The notes: generated by a model from the letters alone, not told the origin. A stretch of DNA of 26,013 nucleotides from a virus (IMGVR_UViG_2671180460_000013); one strand, 5' to 3'. Positions 1 through 15,545 are shown, counted from the stretch's first letter. Program-made: numbers and translations.

Positions 1-381
1 TTATGAGTTCTGGAATTCTTCTGCCCGTCTTTCCAGTTCAGCCATGAAAGAAGTTTTGGCTTTTTCGTGAGCATCTGGGGCCATGATGCTGATGATTTGT
101 ATATTGTCATAATCCATCCAGTGCCTTGTATAAACCAGATAGATATTTGAAGTTCTGTCTATTTGGGCTTTGCTTTTCTTCCATGGTGGTTCTGACGGTA
201 GTCTTATGTGTAATTTATATACAAACGAACCACATAATCTTGCGTTATCTTCCCACTGCCCTTCATTGCCGAATCTGTCAGGGAGAACACCGGTATTTAA
301 CCAGTTTTCCAGAGCCTTTCCGTAAACTTTTGCAATGTCCTGGTATTCAACATCTTTATGAATGCTTACTTTGCTTGCCAT
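1..381 (-). CDS. hypothetical protein (126 aa), distal gene of a two-gene cargo operon; faint RelE/ParE-like C-terminal pattern, function unassigned
   Basis: ORF track 1..381. ATG at 379-381 overlaps the TGA of the upstream gene (TGATG), stop TAA at 1-3. Sampled lines are AT-richer than the structural genes. Confidence 0.5.
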   Translation of the reverse strand: MASKVSIHKDVEYQDIAKVYGKALENWLNTGVLPDRFGNEGQWEDNARLCGSFVYKLHIRLPSEPPWKKSKAQIDRTSNIYLVYTRHWMDYDNIQIISIMAPDAHEKAKTSFMAELERRAEEFQNS

Positions 382-1007
382 CAGGAAAACTCCGGTGCCG
401 GGAGTCCCATGTTTTTATGCTCGGCAATAATCATTGCTTTCACATTTCCGTCAGACAGCGTATTGCCCAGGCTGGTTGTTTTGTCTGGTGCGGTGCTTCG
501 TTTGATGGTGTTGATGGCATCACGAGCGATAAACTCCCCCTGCGCAATTGCCCGACCAAAACGAACCAGTTTATTGCGATAGGCGATTCTTTGCTCCAGG
601 CTATCCGGATACATTTTTGCCAGGTTATCCGGATCCATTACAATTTTGACAGCCTCTTTAACACGGGTGTGCTGCTTAATTGACTCTTCGCATATTTTTA
701 TGATTTTTGCGGTTTTGTCAGTAAATAGTGCTCCCTTACCTCTGTTCTGTCGTTCTTCAATGACTGCATTGAGCGCGGCACGCATGTTGTCATTCAGCCC
801 GTTGATATATTCAATAGCTTCTTCGAGAGGCAGAAACACCTGACCATCATGATGCTCAAATGTAAGCATTGAAACCACTCTGGCGTGTGTCGCGGATTCA
901 ATAACTGTTGTTGGTAGTATCGTGCTTTTAGCTGGCACCGGAGCCAGTGATGCTGTCAGAGCTGTAGTAATAGCAGCAATGGCAGCAGACTTTGATTTTC
1001 GTTTCAT
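381..1007 (-). CDS. exported protein of unknown function (Sec-type signal peptide), about 208 aa
   Basis: ORF 381..1019. Internal ATG at 1005-1007 is preceded by GGAG. N-terminus MKRKSKS followed by hydrophobic AAIAAITTALTASLA and a VPA cleavage-like site. Confidence 0.55.
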   Translation of the reverse strand: MKRKSKSAAIAAITTALTASLAPVPAKSTILPTTVIESATHARVVSMLTFEHHDGQVFLPLEEAIEYINGLNDNMRAALNAVIEERQNRGKGALFTDKTAKIIKICEESIKQHTRVKEAVKIVMDPDNLAKMYPDSLEQRIAYRNKLVRFGRAIAQGEFIARDAINTIKRSTAPDKTTSLGNTLSDGNVKAMIIAEHKNMGLPAPEFS

Positions 1008-1544
1008 AATGCACTCCACAGGTTGATGTGTTCAGCATATCGCAAATAGCAGCTTGTATAAAGAAACGCCACATCAGCAGCGATCGTTTTACGCGCTTTT
1101 CTTCTTGTTGCGATCCTTTTTTCAGTTTTATTTTGGAGCTTAATTTTGTGCGGGCCGCGCCGTGTCTGCCTTCTTTGTTTGATGGTTGTTTGACGCGATC
1201 CTTTCGTGATCGTTTTTTTGTCTCGCGTAAAGTATGAAAACTCTTTTAATATCATGCGGTTTTATTGCTCCGGCCATTTGTGCGATCGTAAAAACCACTT
1301 TGAAAACTGCAAAAAATTTCAAAGCGTGAAATTTCAGATCTTCGCTTTTCCCTCAGTTGCTGCGCGGGCTGGCGGTCATTTTTGCACGGCAGAAAACTGA
1401 AAAAGTGTTTCGACACAAAACCCGCGGGTTGGAGGGGGTAGCGCGGTTTACGTTACCTCACGCTTTACGTCACGCCGTTTGCGCGGTGTGCGCATACAGC
1501 GCCAGAATGGCATGCAGAACGATTAATCAGGTGGCAGATATGAA

Positions 1545-3304: not shown

Positions 3305-3876
3305 GTTTTCCCTTCCTCCTTCACGCTCCCGATGCCAATCCAGTCCAGCCCGGAGCCAATACCATCATTGATATTTTTCCAGAAAGTCTCCTGGGTATTC
3401 ATTCCTTTATCTGGTGCCTGCTCACTGCCGTTCTGTGTCTGCTGCTTTGCGATTGTTTTCTGTGAGCCACTGCGTGCCGATGCTTTTTCCGGCACGCTTA
3501 ATTTTTCCCTGAGGGTAAAGGTGACCTGCCAGTGCATCTTGCCCTGTTGTTCCGTGGCATCGATGCCGCCCGAAAAAACACCCTGTCGCATATTAATCGC
3601 CTTAGCAGTAGCGTTGGCGATGCGGTATGTTTTTTTGGCTCCGTTACTTTCTGTTGCCTCCGCAAGCTGAAAAATACGGGTCAAAATAGCTTCATCGTTA
3701 AAATCAATAACCCCCGACACGCGCAGCTCTTTGGCCTTGTTTCCCTGCTGGGCGCTCGTGGTGCTGGTTGATTGTCCGGACATATCTTTGTCCGGTAGTT
3801 GCATGGTGGCGCTGACGGTGATGTTGCGCAGCAGAATGGCTTCCCCGTCAAGCGCAAGGACAATCATCTGGGTCAT
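3301..3876 (-). CDS. hypothetical tail/baseplate-associated protein (191 aa)
   Basis: ORF with ATG at 3874-3876; its stop overlaps the start of the spike gene (ATGA). Sits inside the tail operon; no recognisable motif. Confidence 0.4.
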   Translation of the reverse strand: MTQMIVLALDGEAILLRNITVSATMQLPDKDMSGQSTSTTSAQQGNKAKELRVSGVIDFNDEAILTRIFQLAEATESNGAKKTYRIANATAKAINMRQGVFSGGIDATEQQGKMHWQVTFTLREKLSVPEKASARSGSQKTIAKQQTQNGSEQAPDKGMNTQETFWKNINDGIGSGLDWIGIGSVKEEGKT

Positions 3877-4570
3877 GTAGTGCTTCCCTTAGTGATGAGA
3901 GATTATCGCCGACGAACAGCATCACAGCTGTAAAAACCCACTCGGGGTGTGGGATGTTTTTTTGTATCAGCACTGCGGCCTGGCTAAGGGCTCCCTTGTA
4001 GCAAAAGCGCCACACCGGGCAAAATTTTTGCCGGAGTGCTGCCTGCTGATCAGCGATTTCCTGTAGTGCTTTATCTCTCGCATTCATGAACTGACGCAAC
4101 GATGATGACAATGTTTCCGGTGATGTGACGGCAGGAGTGGCTGCCTGTGCAATGGTTGCTGCCAGTGACATGCTGCGAGTGGTCTGTGTCGATAGCATTA
4201 TCGGTTCCGGAAGTGATGTTAGCGGTCTGGCGGGGATTTGCATTCTGCTGATGGCCAGTGAAAGCTGGCTGGAGATCATGCGGGACATTCGTCCCACCTC
4301 TGGCAACGGAAATGCGCCTGAAAATTGCCTGGCGAGTGATAGAAACTCGTCGGCAGACGGGGCGCAAAATAACAGCGCCACAACGTCTTTTTCTGTGTTT
4401 TCTGTCAGATAAGGTAAAAGCGCGGATACAGCATTATCCGGGCTGAGGTAACGCCCTGATGGTGTAATGTTTCCCGTATTTTCTGACCATGGGTGGAGGC
4501 AAACCATTGAACAGGTAATAGCTATGGGGGCTGGTCGCAAAACAGAGCGTATCCATGTTGAATTGTTCAT
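3848..4570 (-). CDS. hypothetical protein (240 aa), Ser/Thr/Ala-rich with a Cys-containing C-terminus; possible accessory or chaperone of tail fiber 2
   Basis: ATG at 4568-4570 with AGGAAG RBS, 24 nt after the fiber-2 stop. Lacks the conserved C-terminal motif of classical tail fiber assembly proteins. Confidence 0.4.
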   Translation of the reverse strand: MNNSTWIRSVLRPAPIAITCSMVCLHPWSENTGNITPSGRYLSPDNAVSALLPYLTENTEKDVVALLFCAPSADEFLSLARQFSGAFPLPEVGRMSRMISSQLSLAISRMQIPARPLTSLPEPIMLSTQTTRSMSLAATIAQAATPAVTSPETLSSSLRQFMNARDKALQEIADQQAALRQKFCPVWRFCYKGALSQAAVLIQKNIPHPEWVFTAVMLFVGDNLSSLREALHDPDDCPCA

Positions 4571-4594
4571 TTGTTCTTCCTGTGTGTCCGGATA

Positions 4595-6151
4595 TTACCC
4601 CATTCCGTTCTGGCGTAATGTTGTTCCCGCAAATATTTTTGCCACCACAACACAGGGAAGGGGGCCATTTTCTGCGCTGGCTGTCTCCTCCAGTGTCGAT
4701 GTATCCAGTGCATAGTAAGGTGTGTCTGGCATCACCACCCGTATTCTTACTGTTATTGTGCTCGCGGTAGCCGAAACAGAACCGACAAAATACTGAGCAG
4801 GAATGTATTTCCGGTTCTGATTCATGTAGAGATAACGTGGTTCGAGCAGAGCAGAAACAACGATACCCACTCCCCCAACAGAGGATTTCCTGACAGGATT
4901 AGATACATCCAGTTCCATAGCATAAATACGTGAACCATCCGGTAGGCTTTTAAATGAATCCAGGTTGCTGTTCAGGGTACTTGCAGCCACCTTTGGAATG
5001 ACCGGATGAGTGCCATCAACAAATAAGTCTCCGGATTGTTGTCTGGACAGTAAATTGGTCGGCGCAGAAGAAATTGCGGGGTCCTCTGATGAATGGATGT
5101 CAAGAGATTCTATCTGTTTGCGAACAAAGGCCACACTGGCAATTTCATTATCTGCTGCATCATCCGGCGGTGTTGGTATAGTCGGCTTTCCTGTGAATTC
5201 CGGGCTTTCCAGAGGAGCCCTTGTTTCAATAAGTTCCCTGAGTGCAACCTCGTTTACTTTCAGGTTTTCCCAGCCAGTCAGCCAGCCATTACCAGTGGAC
5301 CAGTAACGGTTGTAATAAATATTGCCATTAATGCCGTAGAAAATAATGGCCTTTGCTGTATGTGACGGAAGTGGTGGGTTCTGGTTCGCCTCCAGCCAGC
5401 GGATACTTATCACCCCCCGAAAAACAATGCCGGGAAGTACACCGTTTGCCCCATCCACATAATATTCTCCTGGTTCCACATATCTTATCCATGCCAGAAA
5501 ATCAGCATCAGAGTTAAACCTGACGGCCTCTCCCGGAATAAAAATATGCCCAAAACCAAATGCGCCTGGTGTCGCCAGACGACCTTCAGAACGGTCACGG
5601 ATACCATTCTGAGGTTCCATTGTGGCCGCTTTTTTTAGCCCGAGATTATCGCGTGATTCCTGTTGTGCCTCTTCGCCCTCATCAGCAATTTCTGACAGGC
5701 GATTAGGTGCTTTCAGTGCTGTTTTCAGTTCCGGAGTGATATCCACCTGCCAGCTCTGCGGAGGGGCTGTGACTTGTGCAGACTGAGCAATGCCGCTGTA
5801 TATAATCGTGAAATTACGAATAAGTGATTCGCCTGTTACTTTTTGTCGAACAGGCGTTTTTATTACGCCGCACAATGTTCTGCTGGCCTGATGGATGAGG
5901 CAAATCCAGTCATAACTGAATGCGGAGTCATCGGGAACAACGGCACTACACACAATATTGTTCTGACTTAACTGCCCATAGGTCAGTTCATTAACAATAT
6001 ATGTGATTTTTTCTTCCGGGATGGCATCATCTTCGCGCGTCGGCTCCCGCTCCATCAGGGCAAAAATAATGGCATCAGGGCGTGCAGGTAAATTACTGGC
6101 TGTGCATTCAGCAACCCACTTTTCAAATGCTTTCGTTAACAGTGCGCTCAT
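4595..6151 (-). CDS. tail fiber protein 2 (518 aa)
   Basis: N-terminal ~150 aa alignable by eye to the N-terminus of fiber 1 (PARPD, YxW motifs). Contains the fiber motif SPEFTGKPTIPTPP...EIASVAFV. C-terminal half is unrelated to fiber 1. AT-richer than neighbours. Confidence 0.7.
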   Translation of the reverse strand: MSALLTKAFEKWVAECTASNLPARPDAIIFALMEREPTREDDAIPEEKITYIVNELTYGQLSQNNIVCSAVVPDDSAFSYDWICLIHQASRTLCGVIKTPVRQKVTGESLIRNFTIIYSGIAQSAQVTAPPQSWQVDITPELKTALKAPNRLSEIADEGEEAQQESRDNLGLKKAATMEPQNGIRDRSEGRLATPGAFGFGHIFIPGEAVRFNSDADFLAWIRYVEPGEYYVDGANGVLPGIVFRGVISIRWLEANQNPPLPSHTAKAIIFYGINGNIYYNRYWSTGNGWLTGWENLKVNEVALRELIETRAPLESPEFTGKPTIPTPPDDAADNEIASVAFVRKQIESLDIHSSEDPAISSAPTNLLSRQQSGDLFVDGTHPVIPKVAASTLNSNLDSFKSLPDGSRIYAMELDVSNPVRKSSVGGVGIVVSALLEPRYLYMNQNRKYIPAQYFVGSVSATASTITVRIRVVMPDTPYYALDTSTLEETASAENGPLPCVVVAKIFAGTTLRQNGMG

Positions 6152-6157
6152 TACTTC

Positions 6158-6694
6158 TTAATTCTCGCTAATATTCTGCGGTAATTCTGGCCATACAATT
6201 GCGGCATACGATGATTTATCTGTAACCTGACTGAATGTCATCTCTCGTAACGTTTTTGTATAAATACGCCAGACTTTCAGCTTTTCCTTGTCTTCATCGC
6301 TGATTAACCCCAGCAGCAAGTCTGTCTTTTTATCGGATATTTCCCGTTCAGCAATCTCTATAAAACGCGCACGCTCCGACTCCGCCCGCTGTCTGTAGTC
6401 AACAGGAACAGGAAGAACTGCGCCATCTTTATAATACCAACGTGCTTCAATACAAAAACCTTCGGGTAATTCATCCGCTTCCACAATGGTAAAACCTGCC
6501 GGATAAAGCCGGGATACGTCTTCCGCCATTGAATAAATAACGCCGGTTTCAGGATGCGTGCACAGCTTGTACTTCTTCGTGAATTTATCCAGTGATTCAT
6601 AAAAATCCTGCCCGTCTTCACTACGGAAATACTGAATGCCTTCACCATAAGGCATATCTTCAGGGTAGTAACGCGTAACATTTCTGAGCTCCAT
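6158..6694 (-). CDS. tail fiber assembly protein (P2 gpG / Tfa-like)
   Basis: Start moved to the internal ATG at 6692-6694, preceded by AAGGAG. KDGAV motif and C-terminal WPELPQ resemble P2 gpG as recalled. Immediately downstream of fiber 1. Confidence 0.8.
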   Translation of the reverse strand: MELRNVTRYYPEDMPYGEGIQYFRSEDGQDFYESLDKFTKKYKLCTHPETGVIYSMAEDVSRLYPAGFTIVEADELPEGFCIEARWYYKDGAVLPVPVDYRQRAESERARFIEIAEREISDKKTDLLLGLISDEDKEKLKVWRIYTKTLREMTFSQVTDKSSYAAIVWPELPQNISEN

Positions 6695-6708
6695 TGTTTT
6701 CTCCTTAA

Positions 6709-10562: not shown

Positions 10563-12648
10563 GTAGCTCCATCCACTCGTTGAGACGGGCAGGAGATGGA
10601 TCCTGCACGTTGACGTTGACCACACGACGGGAGTTATCGATTGTGGTCTGGTTTTCGTTGTTGTTCTGCATCTCTGCCGCAATGCCACCCGGCCCCGCGC
10701 TGATGGCTTTACCACCGGTTAATACGGAGCCTTCGCCACTTCCTGTGCTTTCTGATGTGCCGATGTTAACGCCGGGGATCATGTTGAGTTTGTCCACAAT
10801 CCAGCCCCATGAATCACTGAAGGACTGTTTCACCAGTTCCCAGAGGTTACTGAAAATGTTCAGGATGCCGCCGGCGATATCCTTCAGGGCGTCCAGAGGT
10901 GAATGCGTGGAAAAATAGTTAACCAGTGCATTCCAGCCGTCCTGGATTGTGTTCCATGCATTGCCGAACCATGCCCCCATACTGCCGACCATTTCAGCCA
11001 CCCACTGAAAGGCGGCGGTGTCCATCAGTGCGGCTTTGATTTCATCCCAACGGGTGATCAGGAAATAAATGCCCACACCCAGCGCAGCCAGTGCCAGGAT
11101 GATTAATGTGATGGGGCTGAAAAGTAACTGTGTTGCAATTGCAGCTCCGCTGGTGACTGCGGTGTAGATTTTCATTGCTATGCCGGCGGCACCCAGCGCA
11201 ACAGAATAAAGCCAGAGTCCGGCGCGCTGTAATTTCAGCAGCGCCAGCTGAATTTTTGCTTTGACGTTGTATGTTCCCATAGCAATGGACATGGCCAGAT
11301 ACAGCGCCCTGACCGTTCGGGCAACTACAGTGAATGCCCACATGGTAGCCGTCAGTGTGCGTTTCAGCAGAATGAGAATCTTCAGAGGTGTAACTGCTGC
11401 CAGCCAGACCAGCCGCAGTCCTGTCCAGACAAACTTCGCCACACCCACCATAATGTTGACAACGGCACCCACTGCGGCAATGCCCAGCAGGGCGGCAGAC
11501 AGTAAACCAATAGCCCGTGTGATATTGGGATACAGACGTAACCAGGCAACAAAGGATTTACCGCCTTCGTTGCTTTTCTGGATAAACGGGTACAGAACAG
11601 GCAGCAACTGCGTGCCGATTTCGATGCGAATGCCGTTAATAATTGCGGCGGCCTGTTCCCATGGATCAGCCATGGCCTGCGCCATTTCGACAGCCTTATC
11701 CATCCCTTTGATATTGCCCAGCGTGGCGATATTCTTTTCAAGTCCGCCAATGTCCGCATTGAGTAATTTAATCATGGCCACAGCTTCATCGGAGCCAAAG
11801 GCGCTTTTCAGCAAATCGGAATCAGCCACTTTTGACAGATCACCAAATTTGCCCCTGATAAGTTTCATGATCTCGACAACACTTTTCATCGTGCCGTTTT
11901 TATTCACGAAATTAAGCCCCAGCTTTTTCTGGGCGCTGCCTACTGCGGCAAGAAATGCCTTGTACTTTGTCCCGGCCTCGCTGCCACTCATGGTGGCCTG
12001 CAGTTGTCCCAGCACGGCGAACTGTTCAGCCGCATCAATACCGGCCGCTTTTGCACTGGCACCCAGCGTGGTGAACGCCGCTGACATGTTATCGCCGGTT
12101 GTTTTAAACATTTGCACGGCGGTGGCGGTTTGCCCGGCGACCTGCTCCACCCATTTGCTTTTTCCCATGGCATCAGCCTGGTCTTTAAAGATGCCGTACA
12201 TGGTGCCCATGTAGGCGGTAATGGTCTGGCTGCTGGATTTGGTTGCTGCTGCCACCGTTGCTGATGCGGTGGTGAAGCGGGACAGCTCATCGTCAGTTAA
12301 CCCGGCAATGGCTGACTGGATGTCGTAAGAAGCACGCACAAAATCCTGCGCAGCCCCGCCGTATTCCATAGTGAAATCAACGGCGGCGCGGCTGAGTTTA
12401 CGCAATCCGGACTCTGCGACGCCCAGTGATTTCACCTCACCGAGCGCCCTGTCCATTTCAATGGCTGGCATCAGTGCCCCCTGAATGGCTGCACCCACTC
12501 CCCAGAGCGCAGCGCCTCCGGTAGCAATGTCCCGAAAGGCTCCCCGACTTGTTGCAGCAAATCCCTGAACCTGTCGCCCGGCTGCACGCAACGGCCTTGT
12601 CAGGCGGTCTGTCAGTTCAAGAAGTAATTCAAGGCGCTGTTGTGACAT
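10552..12648 (-). CDS. tail tape measure protein
   Basis: 698 aa, Ala/Gly-rich with a long hydrophobic central segment. Directly follows the frameshifted tail chaperone pair; its ATG overlaps the stop of the frameshift product. Confidence 0.8.
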   Translation of the reverse strand: MSQQRLELLLELTDRLTRPLRAAGRQVQGFAATSRGAFRDIATGGAALWGVGAAIQGALMPAIEMDRALGEVKSLGVAESGLRKLSRAAVDFTMEYGGAAQDFVRASYDIQSAIAGLTDDELSRFTTASATVAAATKSSSQTITAYMGTMYGIFKDQADAMGKSKWVEQVAGQTATAVQMFKTTGDNMSAAFTTLGASAKAAGIDAAEQFAVLGQLQATMSGSEAGTKYKAFLAAVGSAQKKLGLNFVNKNGTMKSVVEIMKLIRGKFGDLSKVADSDLLKSAFGSDEAVAMIKLLNADIGGLEKNIATLGNIKGMDKAVEMAQAMADPWEQAAAIINGIRIEIGTQLLPVLYPFIQKSNEGGKSFVAWLRLYPNITRAIGLLSAALLGIAAVGAVVNIMVGVAKFVWTGLRLVWLAAVTPLKILILLKRTLTATMWAFTVVARTVRALYLAMSIAMGTYNVKAKIQLALLKLQRAGLWLYSVALGAAGIAMKIYTAVTSGAAIATQLLFSPITLIILALAALGVGIYFLITRWDEIKAALMDTAAFQWVAEMVGSMGAWFGNAWNTIQDGWNALVNYFSTHSPLDALKDIAGGILNIFSNLWELVKQSFSDSWGWIVDKLNMIPGVNIGTSESTGSGEGSVLTGGKAISAGPGGIAAEMQNNNENQTTIDNSRRVVNVNVQDPSPARLNEWMELHAY

Positions 12649-13129
12649 TACGATCCCTTAAAAGCACGGATAATGCCGTTATTGACGGCGATGCTCATAT
12701 TTTCCCAGTAGTGGTTATCCAGCCAGACGGCGGCAGCCAGTGACTGCGGCGAGTCATCCTCGCCGGGCAGCCAGTGGCGGCGCAGAATCAGCATCCGGGT
12801 AAGGTCATTGCGATCAATGGCCCCCAGATGGCTTTTTATTTTTTTACGGTGATTTCCACTTCCGGCACAAACTCGTTATTCACGGCTGTTGCCAGGCTGG
12901 CCGGCATTCCTGGTTTTTCCAGCAACTGGTTCAGCAGATCGCGGTGCTCTTTAATCACGATACGGCGCAGGTAGTTTTTCAGCGGCGCGATTTTGTTATC
13001 CGGCATGAAGTCGTTCTGCAGGTCGTTGTAGGCTTTTACGGTCGGGATAAACGTCAGTTCATGCTCGCCGACCTGTAAAGTGATGGTGTTCTCTGCGGTA
13101 GTCTGGGTGTTTTTATCGTTCATCATCAT
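12648..13129 (-). CDS. tail assembly chaperone frameshift fusion product (E+E' / G-T analogue) made by a programmed -1 frameshift
   Basis: The -1 frame entered at the slippery site stays open for 63 codons (hand-translated, no stops) and ends at a TAA overlapping the tape-measure ATG (TAATG at 12646-12650). Confidence 0.6.
12836..13129 (-). CDS. tail assembly chaperone (P2 gpE / lambda gpG analogue)
   Basis: 97-aa ORF directly upstream of the tape measure gene, ending ...VKK-TAA on an A-rich slippery run. Three consecutive ATGs at 13121-13129; the third has the best RBS spacing. Confidence 0.7.
   Translation of the reverse strand: MMMNDKNTQTTAENTITLQVGEHELTFIPTVKAYNDLQNDFMPDNKIAPLKNYLRRIVIKEHRDLLNQLLEKPGMPASLATAVNNEFVPEVEITVKK
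12839..12845 (-). other. slippery heptamer A AAA AAA for the -1 ribosomal frameshift
   Basis: Transcript reads ACC GTA AAA AAA TAA; the X XXY YYZ heptamer sits at the last sense codons of the chaperone gene. Confidence 0.6.
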
Positions 13130-13155
13130 TTCCTTTTAAAGTCAAGAATAAGAGG

Positions 13156-13187
13156 GCTTAATAAGCCTGCAGGAAGGCTTATTAAGC
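13156..13187 (-). terminator. stem-loop (12-bp perfect inverted repeat) between the endolysin and the tail chaperone; candidate attenuator or partial terminator
   Basis: GCTTAATAAGCC, 8-nt loop, GGCTTATTAAGC, 7 nt after the endolysin stop. Followed on the transcript by a moderately U-rich tract (CCUCUUAUUCUU). Confidence 0.4.
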
Positions 13188-13193
13188 GTAAAA

Positions 13194-13535
13194 TCAGCGC
13201 ACGCCGTCGTGCTCAAGGCTGAAATGATTGCCATCCGGGCGGTTTTTAAAACGACCGCCCCATGCGCCACCAAGGGATTCCCAGTACTCGCCCAGCTCGC
13301 GGTAGGCCTCTGTGCGGGTCTGATATTCACCGTTAATAAACAGATTAAAATCCACGGCCAGCCGCTGGCAGTGCAGGCTGTTGGCAATGCCGGATCCCTT
13401 TTGTGCGTTGAGTTTTGCCTGTTCTGGCGTGCGGTACGCCTCACCGAACGTCAGGCCATAACCGCGCTGATGGGCAAACTGGATGAGTTTTCCGATCATG
13501 ACGGTAAATTGTTGTTGCTTATCGGAGAGTTTCAT
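13194..13535 (-). CDS. endolysin, M15-family zinc peptidase (L-alanyl-D-glutamate peptidase type)
   Basis: 113 aa. HCQRLAVD (H-x6-D) and C-terminal GNHFSLEH fit the M15 zinc-binding arrangement. AAGGAG RBS. Adjacent to the holin. Confidence 0.75.
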   Translation of the reverse strand: MKLSDKQQQFTVMIGKLIQFAHQRGYGLTFGEAYRTPEQAKLNAQKGSGIANSLHCQRLAVDFNLFINGEYQTRTEAYRELGEYWESLGGAWGGRFKNRPDGNHFSLEHDGVR

Positions 13536-13639
13536 TTTTGCTCCTTATGAGGTTGCTGAGGTTTGCGCAGCCAGTACCACAGTGCCCGGATAATTTTCCA
13601 GGCAATGGCGGCAGCTTTTTGTTCCCTGCGGGACAGCAT
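13532..13639 (-). CDS. small cationic amphipathic ORF (35 aa, MLSRREQKAAAIAWKIIRALWYWLRKPQQPHKEQK) between holin and endolysin
   Basis: Hand-translated; below the ORF-track size cutoff. ATG at 13637-13639 with GAGGAG RBS inside the holin 3' end. Its TGA overlaps the endolysin ATG (ATGA). Confidence 0.4.
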   Translation of the reverse strand: MLSRREQKAAAIAWKIIRALWYWLRKPQQPHKEQK

Positions 13640-13644
13640 TGCTG

Positions 13645-13941
13645 TTACTCCTCTTTGTTCTCTTTCTCGCCCAGCTTCCGGCGCATATGACGCAGGAAGA
13701 TTTCAACAATCTGGTAACCGGCAACGCCCATTGCGGTGCCTGCGCCGGCAATGGCCAGTGGGTCAAGGTTCGGGTAGCGAACCAGCAGGGCAGCGGCAGA
13801 AACACCCAGCGCGCTCCCCAGCAGGGTTCGGCCCACAAACAACCGCAACGTAATCGGCTCTGCGCCAGCCAGCACCCGACTTGCGGCAGCGATTCCGCCC
13901 AGAATGCCCAGAGTGATAATGGTGCGCTCATGCTCCTGCAT
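13645..13941 (-). CDS. holin (three predicted transmembrane segments, charged C-terminal tail)
   Basis: 98 aa with three hydrophobic stretches and a C-terminal RHMRRKLGEKENKEE. Directly upstream of the endolysin. GGGGTG RBS. Confidence 0.65.
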   Translation of the reverse strand: MQEHERTIITLGILGGIAAASRVLAGAEPITLRLFVGRTLLGSALGVSAAALLVRYPNLDPLAIAGAGTAMGVAGYQIVEIFLRHMRRKLGEKENKEE

Positions 13942-13944
13942 GGT

Positions 13945-14400
13945 TCACCCCATCAGTCCGCGCACGTCGTTCTCTGAGAGAACGGGCACGCCGTTGATAC
14001 GCACAAAGTCAGGGCTTGCCACCACGTACTTGATTTTGTGCGTGGTCAGATCTGCGCTCTCGGTGTCAATGCTTAACAGGCCGGAAAGCATCAGCTCACA
14101 ACCGAAGGCTTCAACGCGGATTTCTTCGGTTCCCGTATTGGCGTAAAACACAAAATCCATTGGCGGCAGGTCACGCCACGATCCCGCCTGAGCAGCCACT
14201 TCCCCGAGCTGGTTAAAGCTGCGGGTACTCATTTCGATTTCACCTTCGGCACTGACAGGGCCGCGCAGTTTGCCGTCAGGGATGCCACGGGTTTTGGCAA
14301 CGGCGCTTTCATCGCTGATGTCCAGTGAGATGCTTTTCACATGGATATCCGTTCCACCGATAAAAGTGTCAAACGCCATGCCGTTAATGCGGGTCGTCAT
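13945..14400 (-). CDS. tail tube protein (putative)
   Basis: 151 aa, immediately downstream of the sheath gene with an ATGA overlap. Assignment is by position and size, not motif. Confidence 0.6.
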   Translation of the reverse strand: MTTRINGMAFDTFIGGTDIHVKSISLDISDESAVAKTRGIPDGKLRGPVSAEGEIEMSTRSFNQLGEVAAQAGSWRDLPPMDFVFYANTGTEEIRVEAFGCELMLSGLLSIDTESADLTTHKIKYVVASPDFVRINGVPVLSENDVRGLMG

Positions 14401-15545
14401 GCGTTTTCCTCCAGAGATTTATCCAGCTGAATGCCCACTTTGATGGTTTTAGGGCAGGCGTAAGGGCGGACAACAATGCTGATGCTGACCGTCTTTTCGT
14501 CCTGCCAGGTGATAACCACGTCGCCTTTCCGGGGCGATTTCACTTCGCCCGGAAACGTGATGCCGTTAATTTGCATGGATTTCGCCATGGCACGCAGTGG
14601 GCGGGCAAACAGCGTTTCATGTGCGGCAATGCTGCCCGGCGTGCTGTTCAGCGAGCGGTCGGCAATCTTGGGGATGGCCATCAGCCGCACGCGGCGCGCC
14701 ACCTTATCAGCAATGCGGACATGCTCAATGACGTTGTAGTCCCCGCCTTCCACCTCAAGTGTTACACCGTCAGCCCAGTAAAGGCCGTCATAGTCGGCAT
14801 ACCACATGGGCACGCTGTAGCGGGCGGTTGCCAGTGCCTGCAGAGTGTCGAGATCAATTGCCTGCCCAGTGCTGTCTTTCGGGCGTTCTGTGGTTTTCAG
14901 TGCGGACAGGGGCCCGGTTGCCACACGTGCCGGACTGTCAGCAATGGTGACGGCGCTGTTACACAGGCGACCGGCAAGAACGCCCGGTTCAAATCCAAAA
15001 ATCTCCGGAACCAGCATGACCTGCGGGGCTGCAATGCCTTTCTGTAGTGCGGTCAGTTCGGCAACGTATTCCGCCCAGGTTTTACTGTTGTCGTTGGCGG
15101 CGATGGTCAGGATGAACCAGATGCGGCGCTGATATTTATTGATGATGGTCTGACGTAACGCCTGTATGGCGTTGATGTCATCCTTCGTGCTGACCGGCTC
15201 GGTGATCACCACGCCTTCAACTGAAACAGTTTCCTGAGCCGCCAGTATGGCGTTCTGCCATACCTGGCAGGCTGGCGTTGCTTCTTTGCCTTTGCCGGCT
15301 TCCGGCAGAACGGCAACATAGAAAAAGGCATTCTGTCCGGCATTGGTCAGTGCAGACTGAAGGAAGTTCTTCAGCGGGCTGGCGTTCTTTCCCAGTAGCT
15401 CATCCAGATCGCTGTTGGCATTAACCGGCAGAACCTCACCTTTGTTGTTTTGTGCATTGCCCACAAACAGCAGCGTATTTTCCACGCCGTCCGGTGAACT
15501 GCTGAATGTGTTGTACTGTTCAATCGTGACAGATGGCCATGTCAT
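14397..15545 (-). CDS. tail sheath protein (putative)
   Basis: Internal ATG at 15543-15545 with AGGAGA RBS gives 382 aa (MTWPSVTIEQY...). Position between tail-completion genes and tube. Not P2 FI-like in sequence. Confidence 0.6.
   Translation of the reverse strand: MTWPSVTIEQYNTFSSSPDGVENTLLFVGNAQNNKGEVLPVNANSDLDELLGKNASPLKNFLQSALTNAGQNAFFYVAVLPEAGKGKEATPACQVWQNAILAAQETVSVEGVVITEPVSTKDDINAIQALRQTIINKYQRRIWFILTIAANDNSKTWAEYVAELTALQKGIAAPQVMLVPEIFGFEPGVLAGRLCNSAVTIADSPARVATGPLSALKTTERPKDSTGQAIDLDTLQALATARYSVPMWYADYDGLYWADGVTLEVEGGDYNVIEHVRIADKVARRVRLMAIPKIADRSLNSTPGSIAAHETLFARPLRAMAKSMQINGITFPGEVKSPRKGDVVITWQDEKTVSISIVVRPYACPKTIKVGIQLDKSLEENA

Follow-up and report, generated by a model that had tools for sequence, protein, structure and literature searches.

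A small cationic peptide gene between holin and endolysin in spaninless P2/HP1-like prophages of Escherichia coli, a candidate disruptin-like lysis factor

Introduction

How does a temperate coliphage rupture the outer membrane of its host when it carries no spanin, and might a peptide of 35 residues, encoded between holin and endolysin, take the spanin's place? The question is raised by a 26,013-nucleotide stretch of the viral genome IMGVR_UViG_2671180460_000013 (hereafter the window, meaning this stretch at its full length), in which a preliminary description had pointed to a small open reading frame (ORF) within the lysis cassette as a possible spanin substitute.

About 13 to 15% of phages of Gram-negative hosts are without a recognizable spanin (PMC6139136; PMC12819732). 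In the spaninless coliphage phiKT, the gene for gp28, a 56-residue protein of net charge +7 that associates with membranes and is predicted to be helical, lies between those of the endolysin gp27 and the holin gp29; gp28 complements a lambda Rz/Rz1 defect, and the synthetic peptide is bactericidal from outside (10.1101/515445). For finding further candidate disruptins, the same authors proposed a screen by a length below 80 residues and a net charge of at least +4 (10.1101/515445). As of 2026, gp28 was still the sole characterized disruptin and the archetype of its class, in a paper that cites Holt et al. 2022 for it and that treats the use of disruptins by spaninless phages in general as an open question (PMC12819732).

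Results

The lysis cassette and its prophage

The window covers the late region of a prophage, approximately 37.8 kb in length, that joins P2-type head and early genes to an HP1-type tail module and that, in strain EC42405, is inserted beside pheA/pheL. Of 5,426 complete E. coli genomes, 41 contain the lysis region at an identity of at least 95%; no close isolated phage was found in the GenBank phage collection.

The lysis genes lie between the tail tube and tail assembly chaperone (TAC) genes (Table 1). No signal or SAR segment was detected in the endolysin (maximum KD17 of 0.55), which is therefore holin dependent, and the position of the TAC gene leaves no space for a spanin pair after the endolysin gene. 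The 64-nt gap between these two genes is occupied by a hairpin, at a place where relatives have Rz/Rz1. The hairpin stem is retained through compensatory changes in two divergent relatives, L025 (about 3777-3808) and L115 (about 4455-4486), and the element may serve in the late operon as an intrinsic terminator, an attenuator or an mRNA-stabilizing element.

Table 1. Features of the lysis cassette and its boundaries, in window coordinates
Feature	Position	Strand	Remarks
Tail tube protein, HP1 Orf24 family	13945..14400	minus	Upstream boundary of the lysis cassette
Holin, 98 aa, three hydrophobic segments	13645..13941	minus	HP1-type PF04550 (E 5.5e-28) / phrog_175
GAGGAG Shine-Dalgarno of small ORF	13648..13653	minus	8 nt 5' of the ATG at 13639
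Small ORF, 35-aa cationic, predicted helical peptide; candidate disruptin-like lysis peptide	13532..13639	minus	Read from sequence
AAGGAG Shine-Dalgarno of endolysin	13541..13546	minus	Inside small-ORF codons 32-33 (K-E)
Endolysin, 113 aa, M15 (VanY-like) metallopeptidase	13194..13535	minus	Peptidase_M15_4, PF13539
Hairpin, 13-bp stem, T-rich tail	13156..13187	minus	dG -21 kcal/mol, z -3.5
Tail assembly chaperone (TAC), PF10963	12836..13129	minus	Downstream boundary of the cassette

Two other regions of the prophage vary in content. The tail-fiber region differs between the window and EC42405 (window positions about 4100-6700 against L001 24306-25817), for in the latter the tail-fiber gene is truncated and part of a shikimate transporter gene has been inserted. 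This region is a host-range module that is variable and recombines. The right arm (window 1..1019; L001 30468-33386) carries a YafO-family toxin gene and an adjoining 212-aa ORF without a PHROG match, to which EC42405 adds an ATP-dependent nuclease; these genes are cargo or defense-like.

A small ORF is coupled to both lysis genes

Holin and endolysin are separated by a 109-nt spacer that holds an ORF running from ATG to TGA, with the translation MLSRREQKAAAIAWKIIRALWYWLRKPQQPHKEQK. The ORF, a GAGGAG ribosome-binding site of its own and the overlap of its stop with the endolysin start had all been reported in the preliminary description and are present: the GAGGAG coincides with the final two codons of the holin, and the TGA (13534..13532) shares nucleotides with the endolysin ATG (13535..13533) in an ATGA. 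The distance from the holin stop to the small-ORF start, which had been given as 3 nt, is in fact 5 nt (CAGCA, between the holin TAA and the ATG). The endolysin's own AAGGAG is retained across all alleles of the small ORF, including those with premature stops, and Shine-Dalgarno-like sequences also precede the ORFs of the two divergent relatives (GGAGGA in L025 and GAAGGA in L115).

Description of the ORF as unannotated holds for RefSeq and its PGAP pipeline, which calls holin and endolysin yet leaves the 109-nt spacer blank, but GenBank and UniProt already list it: the exact 35-aa sequence is deposited as EHO01281.1 and, in UniProt/UniRef, as A0A2X6GE95_ECOLX, both named "hypothetical protein." PGAP does annotate a 48-aa ORF of the DUF6890 / phrog_7050 family (12648..12794, minus strand), situated between the tail assembly chaperone and tape measure genes, presumably because a family model exists for that ORF. 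The spacer is open in one further frame, that of the holin itself, which runs on for 38 codons past its TAA through the entire spacer (13532..13647, minus strand); by substitutions, no constraint was found in this extended frame (rate ratio of 0.68 to 0.75).

The reading frame is conserved and under selection

Shuffling the spacer produces a spanning ORF in 5% of cases, so the existence of the ORF is weak evidence by itself, and it is conservation that lifts it above chance. The small ORF is found in thousands of E. coli and Escherichia albertii assemblies, every time with a PF04550 holin on one side and an M15 endolysin on the other, and gene callers predict it in 2,434 blocks of the assembly collection, where the order is always tube, holin, ORF, M15 endolysin, TAC. 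We recovered approximately 80 protein variants (one of the family searches used an alignment headed by the 41-aa allele described below). Their reading frame is kept, and a core, AIAWKIIRALW-WLRKPQQP, is near-invariant, with WKI[IL]R.LW.WL as its conserved motif. All of the common indels are in-frame (loss of one codon from a run of Ala, and a QQP either duplicated or deleted); premature stops, after E33 (182 contigs) or after P27, remove the tail alone in some lineages, and the two frameshifted variants are rare.

Substitutions tell the same frame from the others. Among 26 variable sites in 11 DNA haplotypes, 12 are synonymous and 14 nonsynonymous in the ORF frame (rate ratio of 0.31, P = 0.0036), and the ratio is 0.45 to 0.85 in the other five frames. 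Selection is weaker than on the neighboring genes, with pairwise omega values of 0.12 to 0.39 for the small ORF against 0.02 to 0.19 for holin and endolysin in well-diverged comparisons. Loss of the frame in related phages had been named beforehand as grounds for abandoning the proposal; the frame is intact in the approximately 80 variants, and purifying selection is specific to it.

More distant alleles occupy the same slot. The L115 allele encodes 39 residues (54% identical, net charge of about +8) between an endolysin that is 95% and a holin that is 80% identical to those of the window; the ORF overlaps the holin stop with its start and the endolysin gene with its last 14 nt. In L025, whose endolysin and holin are 86% and 72% identical to those of the window, the peptide has 41 residues, approximately 25% identity, a net charge of about +9 and a hydrophobic moment of 0.51, and its gene has a GTG start overlapping the holin stop and an ATGA at the endolysin; this lineage was not found in the set of complete E. 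coli genomes. Thus, the two alleles differ in the geometry of start and stop, and their cationic, predicted helical character is retained.

From these sequence comparisons, we conclude that the spacer holds a selected and probably translated gene and that constraint acts on the helical core and on the physicochemical character of the product, not on its exact sequence. That the spacer is instead a noncoding regulatory RNA or a recombination scar, open by chance, is barely credible. As RNA, the region folds somewhat more stably than shuffles do (z of -2.2, a weak signal), PGAP makes no call and chance openness stands at approximately 5%, but neither the excess of synonymous changes specific to the ORF frame nor the in-frame nature of the common indels would be expected, and L025 and L115 both keep an ORF in the slot. 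Moreover, no Rfam match was found for the spacer region, and a predicted internal hairpin is not kept in L115 (read by eye from the sequence), whereas the peptide core is.

We also consider it improbable that the ORF serves coupling only, such that ribosomes reinitiating after the holin are carried to the endolysin start and set the holin-to-endolysin ratio while the peptide itself is inactive. Tight coupling at both ends, the location of the endolysin Shine-Dalgarno sequence inside the ORF and the frequency of spanning ORFs in shuffled spacers agree with such a role, as does a C-terminal tail that tolerates truncation, a frameshifted ending and indels. This account leaves unexplained why constraint acts at the amino acid level in the ORF frame in particular, why the WKI[IL]R.LW.WL core is conserved and why cationic helical character survives the near-complete DNA divergence of the alleles; furthermore, relatives couple the two genes by direct overlap of holin and endolysin, with no spacer.

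The peptide family is otherwise isolated. A tblastn search with the peptide against 50,697 phage records gave no match, and no family for it was found in Pfam, PHROGs or NCBIfam. With phmmer, exhaustive searching of 1.84 billion representatives yielded its own family, one 39-aa relative and three long repeat proteins; matches to the last look compositional (P0035, for example, carries many WYWL repeats), and we do not count them as relatives.

The product resembles membrane-active peptides

The 35-residue peptide has nine Lys or Arg and two Asp or Glu residues, for a net charge of +7, and three Trp residues. An alignment-free AlphaFold2 prediction places a helix at residues 4 to 24 (mean pLDDT of 74), followed by a disordered tail, the latter (residues 25 to 35) being variable and rich in K, Q, E and P. 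All Lys and Arg residues of the helix fall inside an arc of approximately 100 degrees, and position 22, which is Y, H or R among the variants, sits on the polar face. The maximum hydrophobic moment, in an 18-residue window, is 0.54, a value attained by 8% of shuffles of the same composition. The earlier characterization of the peptide as strongly basic, Trp-rich and amphipathic is thus borne out for charge and for Trp content, but its amphipathicity is moderate.

No transmembrane domain (TMD) was detected in the peptide (maximum KD19 of 0.41), its hydrophobic stretch being broken by K15 and R18, and it has neither a signal peptide nor a lipobox, nor any Cys. Lacking both Cys and a hydrophobic segment, it is therefore not a spanin, which would have a lipobox or a TMD, and it falls outside the holins and pinholins, which have at least one TMD. 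A sequence search of the PDB with the peptide gave only a nonsignificant likeness to choline-binding repeats (E of 0.48). This profile (a charge of +7, a predicted helix and no TMD) is that of a putative membrane-active peptide.

In length, charge, helicity and hydrophobic moment, the peptide lies in a range similar to that of antimicrobial peptides such as LL-37, melittin and the Trp/Arg-rich peptides, from which it differs in being made in the target cell itself, with no signal for secretion; it shares no homology with them. Its Trp/Arg-rich-like composition, and the bactericidal action of synthetic gp28 from outside, are what would speak for a factor that is freed at lysis and strikes neighboring bacteria or superinfecting phages rather than the envelope of its own host. 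We hold such a role to be highly improbable: placement and coupling within the holin-endolysin unit point to lysis itself, no immunity gene is present, and the quantity released per lysed cell would be small.

Spanins are absent from this clade and present in its relatives

No Rz/Rz1 homologue was found across the 37.8-kb prophage, and a lipobox scan of the same sequence yielded no credible lipoprotein ORF, only alternative-frame ORFs that are not conserved. Two of these were considered as hidden spanins and rejected. The first, a 43-aa ORF at the 3' end of the endolysin gene (13142..13273, minus strand), has a signal peptide-like start and an STTAC lipobox, but the part after the Cys, corresponding to the mature protein, is not conserved in L025, and the ORF is probably no gene; it recurs in Escherichia phage ESSI2_ev239 because the endolysin C terminus (PDGNHFSLEH.GVR) is conserved, and is a by-product of that conservation. 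The second (14897..15034, minus strand), a 45-aa ORF within the sheath gene but in a different reading frame, bears a weak, Pro-rich likeness to Rz1 (E of 0.033), with CVTAPSPLL.VRH aligned against CTTTPSPVPNVRY of the ESSI2_ev239 Rz1 lipoprotein. Its signal peptide is poor, both L115 and L023 have stop codons that break the frame, and we regard the likeness as a chance match.

The endolysin was then used to scan one genome per bacterial species, giving 78 loci across which the holin, the endolysin, the TAC and the ESSI2_ev239 Rz/Rz1 pair were compared by script. The order tube-holin-endolysin-Rz/Rz1-TAC, without the small ORF and with a holin that abuts or overlaps the endolysin, occurs in 60 loci, from Enterobacter, Salmonella, Citrobacter, Yersinia, Serratia, Erwinia, Photorhabdus, Xenorhabdus, Providencia and others. 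In these loci, the Rz and Rz1 genes overlap each other and follow the endolysin, about 480 to 520 nt before TAC; in ESSI2_ev239, the products are 110 aa long with a TMD at the N terminus and 99 aa long with an LSAC lipobox. A spacer of at least 100 nt is present in 24 loci (the 35-aa type of E. coli and E. albertii, and L025), and all 24, plus L115, are without Rz/Rz1 and have an endolysin-TAC gap of 64 to 86 nt. Two apparent departures have other explanations: L078, which seemed to combine Rz/Rz1 with a spacer, has a frameshifted holin, and L081 is a prophage remnant.

One locus remains as an unexplained counterexample. L055, on a metagenome-assembled contig (JAVBKE010000038.1, 1040-1997), has a tube-holin-endolysin-TAC cassette with neither Rz/Rz1 nor the small ORF, a holin-endolysin overlap of 14 nt and an AT-rich gap of 60 nt ahead of TAC; at 2.8 kb, the contig is too short to show genes encoded elsewhere.

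The spaninless loci form a single clade, within which tube and TAC proteins are at least 83% identical, as against at most 50% (tube) and 44% (TAC) identity to all carriers of Rz/Rz1. Accordingly, the association of the small ORF with the absence of spanins amounts to approximately one evolutionary event and is not a statistical one. The clade is nonetheless diverse, with dS in the tube gene of up to 0.94 and peptide identity down to approximately 25%, and by these comparisons the diversified clade has remained spaninless and has retained a small cationic ORF in the slot throughout.

ESSI-2-type spanins of HP1-like Peduoviridae offer a close comparison, being encoded in the same tube-holin-endolysin-TAC cassette (e.g., gp12 of ESSI2_ev239 and its overlapped lipoprotein ORF), and the small ORF would serve, as they do, to remove the outer membrane during lysis. 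Rz and Rz1 are an inner-membrane-anchored protein and an outer-membrane lipoprotein that fuse the membranes, whereas the peptide has no TMD or lipobox, and their genes lie downstream of the endolysin, whereas the small ORF lies upstream.

Discussion

What step, then, does the peptide serve? Our preferred reading, to which we give a probability of roughly 0.45, is that it is a third lysis component that disrupts the outer membrane in place of Rz/Rz1, a functional analogue of gp28; on the same footing, the small ORF may represent a new, sequence-unrelated disruptin-like family and the second "disruptin" to be recognized. Every computational check able to refute the spanin-substitute idea favored it, as judged from sequence. 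The proposal made in the preliminary description is strengthened by a conserved frame, the absence of spanins, the presence of Rz/Rz1 in relatives without the ORF and passage of the phiKT screen, and is weakened by the lack of similarity to gp28, the restriction to approximately one lineage and a locus (L055) that has neither element, as well as by the moderate hydrophobic moment, the relaxed selection compared with the adjoining genes and the premature stops and rare frameshifts; it stands as the best-supported hypothesis.

The peptide passes that screen at 35 residues and +7, as do the 39- and 41-aa alleles at about +8 and +9, and the other hallmarks of a disruptin are found with it: a predicted amphipathic helix (of moderate moment) without export signals, a spaninless phage and a position in the lysis cassette. 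With gp28 it shares its charge of +7, a predicted helix, the absence of signal sequence, TMD and lipobox, and a similar hydrophobic moment (0.52 for gp28 against 0.54). Each gene lies between holin and endolysin in a spaninless phage with a PF04550 holin: phiKT gp29 (L106 17283-17666) belongs to this family (E of 2.4e-9) and shares 28% identity with the holin of the window (E of 1e-11).

The differences are also substantial. gp28 has 56 residues against 35, and the peptide is Trp-rich with a broader hydrophobic face; the order is endolysin-peptide-holin in phiKT and holin-peptide-endolysin here; and phiKT is a virulent T7-like podovirus with a T4-type lysozyme, whereas the window belongs to a temperate P2/HP1-like myovirus prophage with an M15 peptidase. 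There is no detectable sequence similarity, BLASTP of gp28 against the peptide giving no alignment at an E value of 100 or below. Because the disruptin class is defined by function, this excludes common descent but not a shared mode of action, and the link to gp28 is by analogy only.

On the spanin-substitute reading, lysis would proceed in four steps, as follows.

(i) The late lysis transcript would supply the peptide, whose translation is coupled to that of the holin through its own Shine-Dalgarno sequence and to that of the endolysin through the ATGA, an arrangement of three genes that is read directly from the sequence. Given coupling at both ends, holin, peptide and endolysin would accumulate together.

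(ii) Having no signal peptide, TMD or lipobox, the peptide would stay in the cytoplasm or at the inner face of the inner membrane.

(iii) Triggering of the three-TMD holin would let both the soluble M15 endolysin and the 4-kDa peptide into the periplasm through the holin lesions.

(iv) Once the murein is degraded, the narrow Lys/Arg face would bind the inner leaflet of the outer membrane, with its anionic phospholipids, the broad Trp/Ile/Leu face would insert, and the membrane would rupture, so that lysis is completed without a membrane-spanning fusion complex. This last step is modeled on gp28 and on cationic antimicrobial peptides, and a peptide this hydrophobic could act at the inner membrane instead.

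Action at the inner membrane leads to the principal alternative, which we consider unlikely but weightier than the three set out above (a coupling-only ORF, a released antimicrobial and a noncoding spacer are each less likely): the peptide may be an accessory factor at the level of the holin, binding either the inner membrane from its cytoplasmic side or the holin at its charged C-terminal tail and tuning or triggering hole formation as an antiholin or pro-holin, in which case its role would be like that of P2 LysA or LambdaSo Lcc6 and the loss of spanins would be unrelated. Lacking an export signal, the peptide first meets the inner leaflet of the inner membrane; its translation is coupled to the holin; and a single hypervariable block takes in the C-terminal tail of the holin together with the small ORF (comparing the window with L025, identity is 72% for the holin, approximately 25% for the peptide and 86% for the endolysin). 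Both this cassette and phiKT, moreover, join a small cationic peptide to a PF04550 holin.

Small factors that act at the holin step are known, such as the 65-aa Lcc6, an extra lysis factor of LambdaSo (10.1101/2024.01.23.576932), and "extra" lysis genes need not, therefore, target the outer membrane. Like the peptide, Lcc6 and LysA are small, are encoded among the lysis genes and are needed or modulatory beyond holin, endolysin and spanin, but they are transmembrane proteins that coexist with spanins, whereas the peptide lacks a TMD and is confined to phages without spanins. In addition, 60 related cassettes with PF04550 holins function without such an ORF, and a modulator of the holin would leave the breach of the outer membrane in a persisting spaninless clade unexplained.

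Returning to the peptide as a spanin substitute, a broader proposal, which we advance more tentatively, is that a second, sequence-unrelated disruptin family displaced Rz/Rz1 in a whole clade of temperate HP1/P2-like coliphages and that PF04550 holins are possibly permissive for, or cooperate with, peptide-mediated disruption of the outer membrane. The sister phages that retain spanins would make the replacement a natural swap experiment, and the small ORF is a concrete and easily tested second disruptin candidate in E. coli, the most tractable of hosts, in prophages of sequenced strains that look inducible. Confirmation would argue for the annotation of ORFs of fewer than 40 codons in lysis cassettes, such as the one that RefSeq skips here. 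It would also mean that disruptins arise independently and are able to displace spanins, and it would supply a minimal scaffold, of 27 to 35 residues, for breaching the outer membrane from inside.
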